The position numbers and the translations under genes were made by a program. The notes beneath the pieces were generated by a model, which saw only the letters and a list, made by a program, of their open reading frames with translations, ran no database searches and was not told where the DNA came from. From Candidatus Heimdallarchaeota archaeon (GTDB lineage: Archaea > Asgardarchaeota > Heimdallarchaeia > Hodarchaeales > Hodarchaeaceae), in contig RDOB01000005.1 of assembly GCA_011364965.1 (NCBI GenBank), forward strand, positions 96,001 through 160,000: a stretch of DNA of 64,000 nucleotides, given 5' to 3'. Each line of letters begins with the position of its first letter. Position 1 is the first letter of the stretch. Shown one piece after another: positions 14,654 to 19,111 of the stretch.

Positions 14654-15583
14654 TTGGAAGATCTGGACATTAAAGTTCGAGTTCACAGCATTTATGAGAA
14701 TTTAAAGACATTTATTGAGACACAAGTTCGTGAACGCGAAGTTGAAGGAGCTCTTGTTTTATTCTCGGGTTATATGGATTCAACAGTTGTTTCAAAACTT
14801 GCTATTGATGCTCTTGGACAGGATGCGGTTCAAGTCATTCTCCGAACAGATAAGTATGTAGAGAATCAAGAGGAAGTATTTAAAGAATCTATTGCCTTTT
14901 TAGATATATCTGAAGAAAAAATTATTAGCTGTGATATAGAAAAATTAATGAGAAATTACGGAGCAGAAAATCTGTCCATTCCTGGATCTATAAGAGAAAT
15001 TCCTTCACTTTATCAACCCCTTAGTTATTCATTGTTAAAATTTGCTGCACGAAAAGAAATTGAAGGAAAAACATATGGAATGGTTGGAAAAGCAAGCTCC
15101 GATAGAGAGCGATTGATCCATAAAATCATTGCCTATTCTAAATTGCGTTCTCGTTTGCATATGTCAATTGCTTATTTGAATGCTGAGACAAAGAACTTAT
15201 TTTTGTTTGGAACAATAAATAAAACTGAATTATTAACAGGTCTTTTTACTAAATGGGGACATGGACATGCTGCGGATTTAATGCCATTAGGAAATCTGTA
15301 CCGTTCTCAGGTATTTCAACTCGCCGAATATTTAGAAATTCCTGAGACTATTAGGGGATTAGCAAAAGCAGATCTTCTACCAGGGATTGCAAATAAATAT
15401 CAATATTTCTTTAATATGGATGCAATTGATGTTGATCGAATATTGGTTCGTTTAGAAAATGGTTTGGATAGTAAGGATATTCAAAAAGAAACAGATTTTT
15501 CAGAGGAATCAATTGATAAAATCCTTTCTTATTTTAACTCATCGGCATACACTAGAGCTGCTCCATTAATACCTAAAATATAG
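14654..15583 (+). CDS. NadE-fold (NH3-dependent NAD synthetase-like) protein, diverged paralogue 1
   Basis: SGYMDS in the PP-loop position; GTINKTE..G.FTKWG; D.MPLGNLYRSQVFQLA. Confidence 0.8.
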   Translation: MEDLDIKVRVHSIYENLKTFIETQVREREVEGALVLFSGYMDSTVVSKLAIDALGQDAVQVILRTDKYVENQEEVFKESIAFLDISEEKIISCDIEKLMRNYGAENLSIPGSIREIPSLYQPLSYSLLKFAARKEIEGKTYGMVGKASSDRERLIHKIIAYSKLRSRLHMSIAYLNAETKNLFLFGTINKTELLTGLFTKWGHGHAADLMPLGNLYRSQVFQLAEYLEIPETIRGLAKADLLPGIANKYQYFFNMDAIDVDRILVRLENGLDSKDIQKETDFSEESIDKILSYFNSSAYTRAAPLIPKI

Positions 15584-15591
15584 TATCTTAG

Positions 15592-17127
15592 CTAAATTAT
15601 TTCTAAAATAAAGGCCAAGAAAGATAGATACACGCCACTGAAAACAAGTAATATTAGTGATATGGGTACCAATCTTATCATGAAATATTTAAAGTCTAAG
15701 GGTCGTCCTTCTTTAGTTAAAATAGAAATAGCTAATATTGATGCTGCTGAACCAAATGGAGTTAAACCACCACCAAAAGCTCCTGCAAAGAGCAATATAA
15801 ACCAAAGAAAATTGGGATTATTTAGAGCAGATGGTAGTTCATTGATATCTGCTACTATTGGTATCAAAGCTGCTGTAACAGGAATATTATCAAGAACTCC
15901 ACTTACAAATGAAGCAATGATTAAAACCAAAATACCTGCAGAAAACAAATCACCTCTACTAATCTCTTTAAGTAAAGCTGCTAAATCTTCTAGAACGTGT
16001 GTTGCTTCTAATGTGCCAACTAGAATAAATAATCCCGAAAAGAAAAGAAGAGTATCCCATGAAAGATTTTGGAGTAACCTATATTCATCTGATTTTGTGA
16101 GGACTATGGCTAATATCCCCCCTAGTATAGCTATCACTCCTATAGGCACATTCAGGGTATCACTGAAAATAAAACCTAAAATGGTGAGCATTAGAGAAAG
16201 TGCAGCAAGATAAAATCTATTTCGATCTTCTACAACTCCCCATTCATCAAGAGATAAAATCATATCAGTATCAATGCCAGAAGTTGTAATATTACTCAAG
16301 GGAATTCTTTCTGGAGGGAATACTTTCCGCATATAATATATCGAAAATGGTATTACGAACAAAAGAAATGGGAGGGATATAACCAGAAAATCTACGAAAC
16401 CAATTCCTCCTGCTTGGCCAACCATTATTGATGGAAGAGAACTTACAAGAGTTGCCATTCCTGCAAGACTTGTAGCAAGGACAGCGCCCAATAAAAAAGG
16501 TGTGGGATCATAATCTAAGCCATTGCAGACCGTTAAGATCATGGAGCTGATTAGGATCATTGCTGTGACATTTGCTAAAACAGTGGAAAGAGCAAAAGTT
16601 AGAAGAAAAGTTAGGACAAATAACGGAAAAACCCGTCCCTGAGATATTTTTAACATGCGGATGATGATCCAATCAAACAAACCAGTCTCTGAAGTGGCTT
16701 CAACTAATATTGACATACCAAAAACAACTGCTAAAACCCCCCATTCCATATATCCATGGAACGGATCACCTGTGGGTAATATCACTAAATGCCATGCAAA
16801 ATTATCTAATAATAACACGGCAGAGAGGAGGGTTATAGCACATGCAACAAAAATAATAGTTATTTGTTTATGATGATATTTAGCAACCAAAATAAATGTT
16901 GAAATGAAAATCAATCCAAAATACATCATTTTTCCATATCGAATCGGAATTAATAGAAAAGGTATTATTATTCCAAATATAAAAATTCCTAAAACAAGTA
17001 TAATTAGTCTTACAATTCTATGAGAAAGAACTTTCCTAAAAATTGAATCTTGAGTAAATATGAACGTCCAAATATCCTTCAATTCTTTGGTTAATGGCTT
17101 TTCTTCGATACTCATATTTGAACACAT
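15592..17127 (-). CDS. ArsB/NhaD/P-protein (IT superfamily) transporter
   Basis: About 13 TM helices; TGLFDW, DTLLFFSGLFILVG and SGVLDNIP motifs. Confidence 0.85.
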   Translation of the reverse strand: MCSNMSIEEKPLTKELKDIWTFIFTQDSIFRKVLSHRIVRLIILVLGIFIFGIIIPFLLIPIRYGKMMYFGLIFISTFILVAKYHHKQITIIFVACAITLLSAVLLLDNFAWHLVILPTGDPFHGYMEWGVLAVVFGMSILVEATSETGLFDWIIIRMLKISQGRVFPLFVLTFLLTFALSTVLANVTAMILISSMILTVCNGLDYDPTPFLLGAVLATSLAGMATLVSSLPSIMVGQAGGIGFVDFLVISLPFLLFVIPFSIYYMRKVFPPERIPLSNITTSGIDTDMILSLDEWGVVEDRNRFYLAALSLMLTILGFIFSDTLNVPIGVIAILGGILAIVLTKSDEYRLLQNLSWDTLLFFSGLFILVGTLEATHVLEDLAALLKEISRGDLFSAGILVLIIASFVSGVLDNIPVTAALIPIVADINELPSALNNPNFLWFILLFAGAFGGGLTPFGSAASILAISILTKEGRPLDFKYFMIRLVPISLILLVFSGVYLSFLAFILEII

Positions 17128-17354
17128 CGGTTCATGCTATGTTGCGAGCTTTGAACTATTCTAAAGTTATGATTTGCAAAGTGAGCGGCGTATGCGAAAA
17201 TACTCATACCTTAAATGCGATTTTTTTCTTGAATTAGTATAAAGTTTCCGTAGATTCAATTCTTCAATAATCTTTTGGCCTAGTAATGTAAATTTTGAAC
17301 AGCGAGTCAATTATAAAAACCAAGGTATTTCTATGTTATTTTGGAGAATCCTGT

Positions 17355-18302
17355 ATGAGTTTAAATGATCAATTAAAGATTGAGCCGACAAAAGTAATAT
17401 CTGCTATAACTAATTTTATCACTCCAATACTTGACAGACGGGGAATTGAGGGAGTTGTAATATTATACAAGAAAGACTTAGAATGCGCAGTTAATGTTGA
17501 AATTGCTAAAATGATTGTTGGAGAAAAAAATATTAGACTAGTTGTAACAAAAGGACGATTTACAGATAAGCAGCCCCGTGAAACAATGACTCTTGAAGAA
17601 GTCCGAAATTCAATAAATTTACCAAAAAGCAGTATTATTTTCATAAATAAAGAAAGAATATTAAATGAGATTCAGAGTAGCTATTCTGAGAAACCTAAAC
17701 TTTCAAGAGGTCTAATGGCCTCTGATTATTTACCTATTATTAATTATAATTTAAGCTATTATCTATTACGTAGTATGATTTCATCAGAAATTCGAGAGAA
17801 AACATTTAAAGCTCCAACAAAGAGACCTACTACCAATCGAGAGAAATTTTTCCAACGAAGTATCGCAAATTATAAAACACAAGTTCGGCTGCGCATGTTA
17901 CTTGCCTTTCTCGTTGCAGAGTCAGAGAATAAATCTTATTTTAGTAATATAAACAAATCAGAATGGTTGTTGGGATTATTTACAAAATTTGGGAGTTATC
18001 ATGCAGCAGATTTTTTACCTCTAGGAAATGTATACCGAACCCAAGTTTTTCAATTAGCAAAGCATTTGGGAGTAGAAAAAATTATTGAAAATGATCGACC
18101 GATTAAACCTTCGAGTTATGAATTCTTTTTTGGTCATTCTGCTGATGAAGTGGACAAAGTGCTTATCAGATTAGAGCAGGGATTAGCTATAGAGATTATT
18201 TCCAAAGAAACTGAGGTTCCAGTTGAGACAGTACAAAAAATTTTGACTCATTATGAAAGTTCTGATTATGCCCGTTATGTTCCTCAAATCCCACGAATTT
18301 AA
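17355..18302 (+). CDS. NadE-fold protein, diverged paralogue 2 (PP-loop absent)
   Basis: NINKSE..GLFTKFG..AADFLPLGNVYRTQVFQLA. ATG 17355 with an upstream GGAG preferred over TTG 17295. Confidence 0.75.
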   Translation: MSLNDQLKIEPTKVISAITNFITPILDRRGIEGVVILYKKDLECAVNVEIAKMIVGEKNIRLVVTKGRFTDKQPRETMTLEEVRNSINLPKSSIIFINKERILNEIQSSYSEKPKLSRGLMASDYLPIINYNLSYYLLRSMISSEIREKTFKAPTKRPTTNREKFFQRSIANYKTQVRLRMLLAFLVAESENKSYFSNINKSEWLLGLFTKFGSYHAADFLPLGNVYRTQVFQLAKHLGVEKIIENDRPIKPSSYEFFFGHSADEVDKVLIRLEQGLAIEIISKETEVPVETVQKILTHYESSDYARYVPQIPRI

Positions 18303-18307
18303 TGAAT

Positions 18308-19111
18308 TCACAAAGTTTTCATCTTTCTTTTGAGAAATAATACCCCAAAACCAAAGATAGCTGCCACTGCAATTGAGGCTACAAAAATTTCAGCGATAAT
18401 CCATCTTCTCGGGTCAGGATTGGGAGGATTTGCATTTAGACCCAATGGATAATAAATTGGCAAGCCAGAGACATCAACATATGGATGATCATCATAACCT
18501 AAATAGGGATAGGTTCCAATATAATCATATGTTGTAATATTAATATACGCAATCCATTTAATCCATTTATAGCCATAAAACCTTGGACAGACCAACCGGA
18601 GGGGGAACCCGTGTATTTTAGGTAAAGGTTCTTCATTCATTTCATATGCTAATATCACATCGTCCCAATACGCTTCTTCGATACTCAAACTGCTTGAATA
18701 AGCTCCAACTGTCAGATCTGGAGTATGAAATGAAATGTCAATAGCTTTATCCTCCTGAATTTCTGCTAGATCAAGGATGTAAGAAAGCTTCACACCAGTC
18801 CAATTTGCTACTCCAGTCATCTCTCTCGCTCCCACTGTAAAAGCAATGCAAGTAAGTCGTACGATCTCTGAAGTGACTGGCATTTGTTTGATATCTTCTA
18901 GACTCAAATTCAAATAATTTCTAACTGCACCTGAGACCATTAATCGATATGATGTGGGTTCTATATCAAAATAATCAATAGCTGCAGTAAAAAAATCATC
19001 ATTTGAAGTAATGGGGATTTCTTCTTCATAGGAGATTACATTTATAGCAGCTGTTTGAGTAATCAATAAAGTTGAAATTATTAATAGAGAGTAAAACCAT
19101 TTTAAACTCAT
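18308..19111 (-). CDS. Sulfite-oxidase-family molybdopterin oxidoreductase, exported and C-terminally anchored
   Basis: LTCI (Mo ligand Cys), WTGVKL, LAYEMN..PLP..HGFPLRL..P..YGYKW.KW; N-terminal signal and C-terminal TM. Confidence 0.88.
   Translation of the reverse strand: MSLKWFYSLLIISTLLITQTAAINVISYEEEIPITSNDDFFTAAIDYFDIEPTSYRLMVSGAVRNYLNLSLEDIKQMPVTSEIVRLTCIAFTVGAREMTGVANWTGVKLSYILDLAEIQEDKAIDISFHTPDLTVGAYSSSLSIEEAYWDDVILAYEMNEEPLPKIHGFPLRLVCPRFYGYKWIKWIAYINITTYDYIGTYPYLGYDDHPYVDVSGLPIYYPLGLNANPPNPDPRRWIIAEIFVASIAVAAIFGFGVLFLKRKMKTL

Follow-up and report, generated by a model that had tools for sequence, protein, structure and literature searches.

Introduction

What do two divergent relatives of the NAD synthetase NadE do on either side of a permease gene in an Asgard archaeon? 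The two genes, hereafter P1 and P2, and the permease gene between them lie in a window of 64,000 nucleotides (nt) of Candidatus Heimdallarchaeota archaeon (Hodarchaeales). The window corresponds to G000:C14:96001-160000 in our numbering of contigs, and its source is an Asgard metagenome-assembled genome (MAG) of 2.97 Mb that is 87% complete. Hodarchaeales are the archaea placed closest to eukaryotes, and reconstructions of their metabolism would count P1 and P2 as NAD synthetases, which is almost certainly wrong. The original prediction for this locus, made from the DNA letters alone, was that both proteins, as a heterodimer or a pseudo-enzyme pair, have ceased to make NAD and either adenylate or amidate a new substrate or sense nucleotides as partners of the transporter.

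Here we explore the protein family to which P1 and P2 belong, its active-site residues and its genomic context. The reading that we prefer, and to which we give a little under an even chance, is that P1 and P2 represent a NadE-derived family that arose in one Hodarchaeales genus, left NAD synthesis and became a module with a permease of the ion transporter (IT) superfamily, with P1 as the candidate catalyst and P2 as a non-catalytic partner of P1 or of the permease.

Data and methods

All NadE-like genes, together with the stretches around them, were collected from 21 further genomes of the GTDB genus to which this one belongs, which gave 48 loci plus the window. Most of the compared genomes are incomplete MAGs, so that an absence is to be read as 'not found', and the trees in this analysis rest on quick searches. 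Residues of the family were compared with those of 38 canonical NadE at those columns, about 50, where conservation within the canonical set reaches 85% or more. Ratios of nonsynonymous to synonymous substitution (dN/dS) were calculated by the Nei-Gojobori method between close genome pairs. Wider relatives were collected by a profile search over 1.84 billion representatives, and the gene context of the 'long-form' relatives was read at 13 loci, out of 80 retrieved, the remainder being mostly ordinary NadE.

A canonical NAD synthetase on the same contig

P1, the permease and P2 are encoded by three intact open reading frames (ORFs; Table 1). The layout from which the original prediction started, two NadE-fold genes flanking a transporter gene, was confirmed in its coordinates, Pfam matches and quoted motifs. 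P1 and P2 align from end to end, with 31% identity and an E-value of 1e-51. The start of P2 is most likely the ATG at 17355 rather than the TTG at 17295, because a GGAG is found 8 nt upstream of the former and orthologues are almost all 311-320 amino acids (aa) long.

A search of the whole genome identified a third match to PF02540, of 273 bits (C14:87581-88303), about 22 kb upstream of P1. It belongs to a canonical two-gene NadE locus that ends about 7.6 kb before the start of the window, in which a CN_hydrolase gene (276 aa, the glutaminase) lies 14 nt ahead of nadE. The encoded NadE, of 279 aa, contains SGGIDS, TKYGDG, IYK, QTDETE and EHKRR as well as an extended C-terminal loop. A clustered two-subunit, glutamine-using type of NadE, rare in archaea, was described by De Ingeniis et al., and the locus found here is of that type (PMC3376133). 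An ORF for a C-terminal fragment of glutamine synthetase is located just upstream of the pair. The search for a separate canonical nadE that the original prediction proposed thus has a positive outcome, and P1 is not the sole nadE. In nearly all related genomes the search with P1 also returned a further, weaker NadE match, restricted to the C-terminal part and with the score of this genome's own canonical copy.

Profile scores set P1 and P2 apart from that protein. Both exceed the PF02540 cut-off of 21 bits. On the archaeal NadE equivalog NF010587 (cut-off 255 bits) they reach 132.8 and 104.8 bits, as compared with 300.7 bits for the canonical short-form NadE P0075, and on NF002048 (cut-off 313 bits) they reach 114.8 and 76.3 bits. 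The match to NF002048 runs in a single stretch, from residues 9-295 to model positions 15-307, and spans the insertion described below.

Family structure and active-site residues

A tree of the NadE-like genes of the genus shows three sister clades with Shimodaira-Hasegawa-like approximate likelihood ratio test support of 99-100: clade A with P1 (24 rows), clade B with P2 (27 rows) and clade C, which is not in this genome (7 rows). Among 301 Asgard genomes of 70 genera, a search with P2 (E <= 1e-20) found matches in this genus only (19 of 20 genomes and the own genome), and the search with P1 gave, outside the genus, only scores typical of canonical NadE. Database orthologues of P1 and P2 are labelled Hodarchaeales, Heimdallarchaeota or Promethearchaeota.

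All three clades are under purifying selection. The dN/dS ratio is 0.05-0.12 in clade A, apart from one near-identical pair with 0.51 at a dS of 0.03; it is 0.05-0.26 in clade B and 0.07 in clade C. Simple decay, against which the original prediction had argued from the intact ORFs, is ruled out by these ratios together with the intact orthologues, and P2 is neither missing from relatives nor evolving neutrally.

P1 shows the motifs SGYMDS, TKWGHGHAAD and LYRSQV and the tail YTRAAPLIPKI. P2 has YKKDLEC at the position of the pyrophosphate-binding loop (PP-loop), followed by TKFGSYHAAD, VYRTQV and the tail YARYVPQIPRI. These differences hold for the clades. The PP-loop position reads SG[Y/F/H][I/M]DS in clade A, SGQxDS in clade C and [R/K/S][D/Y][C]xE[S] in clade B; the position of the TKxGD motif reads TKWGHGHCAD in A and TKFGTYHA[A/C]D in B, and in C the Lys of Thr-Lys is lost. 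Ser, Gly, Asp and Ser of the loop are invariant in clade A, and 61 of 63 of its metagenomic database orthologues have SG[YFH]xDST. SGGxDS was found in none of the 73 full-length orthologues of clade B, for which the consensus is [RK]xCxES. The pair of glycines is present in all 38 canonical NadE compared.

About 15 of the roughly 50 columns are retained by clades A and B, including E145, which binds Mg, T152, K153, D160, R120 and R252; clade C retains the same columns except K153. Lost in all three clades are G39 (the second PP-loop glycine), D156 (of TKxGD), R122, E201/E203 (the acidic lid), Y208 and H250/K251, and K169, the Lys of LYK, is replaced by Arg. Position 156 has Gly in A and Tyr in B, and H250-K251 are replaced by Tyr-Thr in A and Tyr-Ala in B; in both clades only the following Arg is retained. 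Clade B has in addition lost S37/G38 and has Glu for D41 of the loop. Its own pocket residues E43, E203, K211, H216, D219 and R228 are nearly invariant. As gains we count an insertion of 40-45 residues, placed between strand 3 and the N..R.R helix and with an invariant LSYxLL motif, common to A, B and C, and an aromatic KYxYFF lid in P1.

Two claims about shared features stood in part. The derived motifs ascribed to the pair are present, but the insertion and the Lys-to-Arg replacement in LYK are not unique to it, since they are also found in the long-form family discussed below. Loss of the acidic loop holds for P2, which has a further deletion of six residues there, but it is not a trait of P2 only: P1 lacks QxDExE as well. 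LarE-like chemistry by means of the Cys of HGHCAD was considered and rejected as a requirement, the P1 of the window having Ala and several orthologues Ser at that position.

Because a canonical nadE with its CN_hydrolase gene exists in the genome and invariant NadE residues are missing from both proteins, P1 and P2 are almost certainly not the NAD synthetase of this genome, as had been predicted. That they are nevertheless isozymes that synthesize NAD or nicotinamide mononucleotide (NMN), for instance from imported deamido precursors, we consider very improbable. In its favour, P1 exceeds the domain cut-offs of both Pfam and TIGR00552, clade A is named 'NAD(+) synthase' at NCBI (clade B is a 'hypothetical protein'), and a NadE relative with shifted specificity does exist, the NMN synthetase 3fiu of Francisella (PMC3376133). 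It is opposed by the loss of G39, D156, H250/K251 and the acidic lid, by the missing PP-loop of P2, by scores of about half the NadE equivalog cut-off and by the presence of a complete canonical NadE with glutaminase.

Predicted structures

AlphaFold2 models made with family alignments have a confident core, with a mean predicted local distance difference test (pLDDT) of 80 for P1 and 79.7 for P2. The best Foldseek matches of both are all NadE, the top one being 2e18_A of P. horikoshii (TMt 0.86 for P1 and 0.76 for P2). In these monomer models the insertion has a pLDDT below 50 (residues 104-143 of P1, 112-139 of P2), which would be consistent with a segment that becomes ordered only in a complex.

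Linkage of NadE-like genes and permease

The permease matches CitMHS (PF03600) with 160.5 bits (cut-off 31.9) and ArsB (PF02040) with 48.9 bits (cut-off 22.2). It remains far below the NCBIfam cut-offs for the named transporters: 120 of 500 bits for MamN, 79 of 457 for ArsB, 47 of 577 for NhaD and 72 of 199 for DASS. Among PDB sequences it matches ArsB (E 1e-14), its nearest solved relative, and VcINDY (E 5e-8). The P1 and permease genes are convergent and end 8 nt apart; permease and P2 stand head to head with a gap of 227 nt. Neither a riboswitch nor any other Rfam family was found in this intergenic region or around the genes, the sole match near them being a snoRNA (E 0.2), which was dismissed as a chance hit.

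The association with the permease, whose conservation in relatives the original prediction had singled out for checking, is conserved: 17 of the 21 genomes of the genus have at least one adjacency of a permease and a NadE-like gene. Permease and clade B are divergent and head to head in 16 of 27 cases, with gaps of 15-427 nt, and in one more a MarR gene lies between them. Adjacency of clade A and a permease was counted 11 times, and the two genes may be convergent, in tandem or divergent. The order A-permease-B recurs in six genomes (G003, G004, G006, G008, G018 and G020), two others (G001, G016) have permease-A-B, and in G019 a tandem operon unites A and B, which are 31 nt apart.

Each genome has 3-7 permease paralogues, and in a tree of linked and unlinked copies the linkage is found in three clades that are not sisters. 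In TR-I, 13 of 14 sampled members adjoin a NadE-like gene; in TR-II, four members are linked to one B subclade; TR-III adjoins one A subclade in four genomes and has no such link in another five. To each of four supported B subclades corresponds a permease subclade of its own, and therefore permease and B are duplicated as a unit; two such pairs each are present in G003 and G011. One B subclade has switched to another permease paralogue. In three genomes (G013, G002 and G009) the permease gene beside clade A is interrupted by a stop, survives as a remnant of 94 aa or is truncated, and clade B is not found at these loci, so that permease and B appear to have been lost together. The linkage of permease and NadE-like genes is real, conserved and recurrent. 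Its conserved unit is the divergent pair of permease and P2, to which P1 is more loosely attached. Clade A adjoins a block with the Lhr helicase gene in 11 of 24 cases, which is more constant than its adjacency to B and which we read as inherited synteny.

Proposed function of P1 and P2

According to our preferred reading, P1 would keep the site for ATP and Mg, with Ser-Gly-x-x-Asp-Ser, the Mg-binding Glu, Thr-Lys and an Arg for the second Lys. Its substrate pocket appears rebuilt: the Asp of TKxGD, the acidic lid, the C-terminal His-Lys and Arg122 are gone, and the insertion and the KYxYFF lid are new. P1 would accordingly be a candidate to adenylate a carboxylate other than nicotinic acid adenine dinucleotide (NaAD). 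P2 would be unable to hold pyrophosphate because the PP-loop glycines are gone, and with the rest of its pocket conserved it may bind a ligand without catalysis, as a partner of either P1, on the model of the NadE dimer, or the permease. Permease and P2 would be co-regulated from the divergent promoter region that they presumably share, and the permease would supply or remove a small anionic substrate or product. We infer ATP use by P1, the pairing of A and B, the kind of substrate and any physical contact with the permease.

NadE is a homodimer in which each site is built from both chains, and an asymmetric A:B dimer is therefore conceivable. Such a dimer might dock on the permease and gate it by a nucleotide or metabolite, or it might trap a carboxylate by adenylation or amidation in a vectorial 'transport-and-modify' process; this more specific proposal is a long shot. 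If true, a permease-docked pair of NadE fold would be a kind of transporter partner that has not been described for PP-loop proteins.

A number of observations weigh against our preferred reading. Clades A and B are adjacent or have a common permease in only 10 of the 21 related genomes, their copy numbers are unequal (one A and three B in G018, two A and one B in G001, for example), other neighbouring genes vary between loci, and no A-B fusion was found among the longer proteins, which is weak evidence. A bulky residue in place of the second PP-loop glycine is not known to us from any PP-loop enzyme, and P1 may be incapable of binding ATP at all. Finally, the pocket of P2 seems too conserved for a merely 'dead' half-site, and an independent role in ligand binding would fit equally well.

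The first of these observations would also suit independence of the two proteins, each a homodimeric enzyme or binding protein in a neighbourhood that is inherited synteny without shared function. In about half of the genomes no linkage of A and B is seen, their copy numbers differ, and A keeps to the Lhr block more constantly than to B. Still, adjacency to a permease has arisen anew with three permease clades that are not sisters and survives the reorientation of A, and it is not credible that two small gene families adjoin each other by chance in 17 of 21 genomes. We therefore take independence to be unlikely.

The conserved pocket of P2 bears more on a different alternative, namely that P2, and possibly P1, is a non-catalytic sensor of a nucleotide or metabolite that regulates the permease in the manner of TeaD and TeaABC, with no adenylation involved. 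In its favour, the PP-loop of P2 is gone and yet the pocket residues hardly vary. The tight and always divergent layout of permease and P2, which survives duplication and exchange of the permease paralogue, and their joint loss beside clade A point the same way, and the glycine-loop variants of A and C may both already fail to bind ATP. The invariant Ser, Gly, Asp and Ser in the PP-loop of clade A suggest instead that a phosphate-binding role has been retained. Furthermore, P1 and P2 match PF02540 only (Pfam, E <= 0.01), with no match to the Usp domain PF00582, and linked and free TR-III permeases are similar in length, so that no docking extension is obvious. A sensor without catalysis is in our view a serious candidate, if an improbable one.

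Long-form relatives of the family

The wider profile search identified 'long-form' NadE-like proteins with lengths of 295-330 aa from many bacterial phyla, in clusters numbering on the order of 100. They have an insertion at the same site as P1 and P2, which is also present in archaeal members, and they are named NAD(+) synthase in databases. In the ESM Atlas, P0085, an orthologue of P2, matched long-form NadE clusters only. Long forms retain SGGxDS, the Asp and the His, and about a quarter of them have Arg for the Lys of LYK. In each of five bacterial genomes tested a long form co-occurs with a full-scoring canonical NadE. At no fewer than 7 of the 13 loci sampled, a gene for an AsnB-type asparagine synthase, a carrier protein or an AMP-ligase adjoins the long form, six of these loci having the AMP-ligase gene plus at least one other cassette gene; a permease gene was beside the long form at none of the 13. 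Since long forms are second copies beside canonical NadE and lie in AsnB-carrier-ligase cassettes, it is probable that this branch as a whole does not serve as housekeeping NAD synthetase. Together with the permease coupling of P1 and P2, these second copies suggest non-NAD functions for a whole branch of PF02540.

The bacterial cassettes (L070, L075, L080, L085, L088, L101 and L117) encode an asparagine synthase (GATase and Asn_synthase domains), a small carrier protein and an AMP-binding ligase. In S. meliloti, smb20651 and smb20650 are a co-transcribed pair of carrier-protein and ligase genes, described with no mention of a nadE-like gene (PMC7232532). The carrier-protein and ligase genes of the cassettes recall this pair in gene type. 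The representative proteins P0177, P0198, P0232, P0233 and P0235 include natural fusions of a long form to a domain of the streptomycin-adenylyltransferase type (PF04439) or to an alpha/beta hydrolase, and also proteins of 557-602 aa with four NadE stretches that appear to be NadE-NadE tandems.

Where clades A, B and C came from is answered differently by the trees: two place them within the long-form family, and one of 135 rows places them beside the short archaeal NadE P0254. Their PLIPK tail resembles that of archaeal NadE and their insertion that of the long form. Descent from either source would accord with part of these data, the trees being in disagreement.

Neighbouring genes

The coordinates of all features are collected in Table 1. 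Directly after P2 follows a gene for a protein with a molybdopterin oxidoreductase domain, with a signal-like segment at its N-terminus and a hydrophobic anchor at its C-terminus; the same neighbour is found after clade B in G006. On the other side, ahead of P1, a gene with metallophosphoesterase-like motifs is convergent with the Lhr-type helicase gene. This pair (clusters 4 and 2) is kept in at least eight genomes of the genus, and we take it to recall the bacterial pairing of Lhr with a metallophosphoesterase.

Genes related to amide or peptide chemistry occur near some copies of the NadE-like genes (M20 and M1 peptidases, an amidohydrolase, a BtrH_N/C39-like protein), and one permease gene is followed by a formiminotransferase-cyclodeaminase gene. 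In some modules, MarR-family (cluster 30) or PadR-family (cluster 78) genes are located between or beside the permease and NadE-like genes. The latter possibly act as local regulators, and their ligand might give a hint at the substrate. Both groups of neighbours are weak substrate leads and may be background.

Clade C has a context of its own. In five genomes the next gene, on the same strand, encodes a transglutaminase-core protein of 202 aa, and genes for an M20 peptidase, an amidohydrolase and an AMP-ligase are found nearby. A 565-aa permease paralogue of the TR3 group lies 10-14 kb from clade C on the same contig in G003, G012 and G017.

Table 1. Coordinates of the genes and regions discussed. 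Plain numbers are positions in the window; L and G entries refer to loci and genomes of this study.
Feature	Position	Strand	Evidence or remark
P1, clade A NadE-like, 309 aa	14654..15583	+	ORF; PF02540, 113 bits
Permease, IT superfamily, clade TR-I, 511 aa	15592..17127	-	PF03600 CitMHS, PF02040 ArsB
Intergenic region common to divergent permease and P2	17128..17354		presumed bidirectional promoter region; sequence read
P2, clade B NadE-like, 315 aa	17355..18302	+	ORF; PF02540, 71 bits
Metallophosphoesterase-like protein, 283 aa	10607-11458	+	motifs DLHLG, GDIFH, GNQD, GHIH; no Pfam match
Lhr-type helicase, 955 aa	11483-14350	-	
Molybdopterin oxidoreductase-domain protein	18308-19111	-	PF00174, 134 bits
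Canonical two-gene NadE locus	G000:C14:86694-88378 (L001 614-2298)		
Decayed permease genes	G013:C106:62525-63876; G002:C63:43369-43641; G009:C113:2758-3456		
Regulator loci	L052 4226-4822, L045, L057 (G012, G018); L023 11562-12188 (G008)		MarR or PadR family
Clade C loci	L041 6596-8189; L043 7089-8036 and neighbours; L042; L040; L044		G015, G003, G017, G012, G005 

Comparison with known systems

Soluble nucleotide-binding proteins encoded beside a secondary transporter, which they modulate or energise, are known from TeaD (USP, or universal stress protein, fold) with TeaABC and from ArsA with ArsB. No sequence relationship links these to P1 and P2 (no Pfam match), and the likeness is one of functional analogy only. 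To our knowledge, PP-loop enzymes do not energise transport.

Closer in architecture are Ctu1-Ctu2 (Ncs6/Ncs2) and the alpha and beta subunits of electron-transfer flavoprotein (ETF), paralogue pairs of the adenine-nucleotide alpha-hydrolase fold for which complexes have been shown and where the PP-loop is missing from one partner. As in P1 and P2, a PP-loop partner is combined with a PP-loop-less paralogue and both are conserved. The known pairs belong to the TtcA/TilS-like or the ETF branch and not to NadE, and their complexes are established, that of P1 and P2 being a proposal.

Long-form NadE (NF002048/PRK00876) resembles P1 and P2 in the insertion, in being an extra paralogue and, in some members, in the Arg for Lys. 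In P1 and P2, by contrast, the PP-loop is altered or lost, and the neighbours are a permease, Lhr and a molybdenum oxidoreductase in place of the AsnB-carrier-ligase cassette.

With NadE itself (PF02540; PH0182 of P. horikoshii, 2e18; B. subtilis, 1nsy/1ee1) P1 and P2 have in common the fold, the Mg-binding Glu, Thr-Lys, R120, D160 and R252. They differ in that the second PP-loop Gly is replaced in P1 and the loop is lost in P2, that the Asp of TKxGD, the acidic lid and His-Lys are gone and that the Lys of LYK is Arg; moreover they carry the insertion of 40-45 aa, have a truncated archaeal C-terminal extension and are extra copies beside a canonical nadE. A core enzyme has thus been duplicated and its ATP loop stripped stepwise, from SGG to SGY or SGQ to none, in proteins that are still under selection, which makes this family a natural series for the origin of pseudoenzymes.

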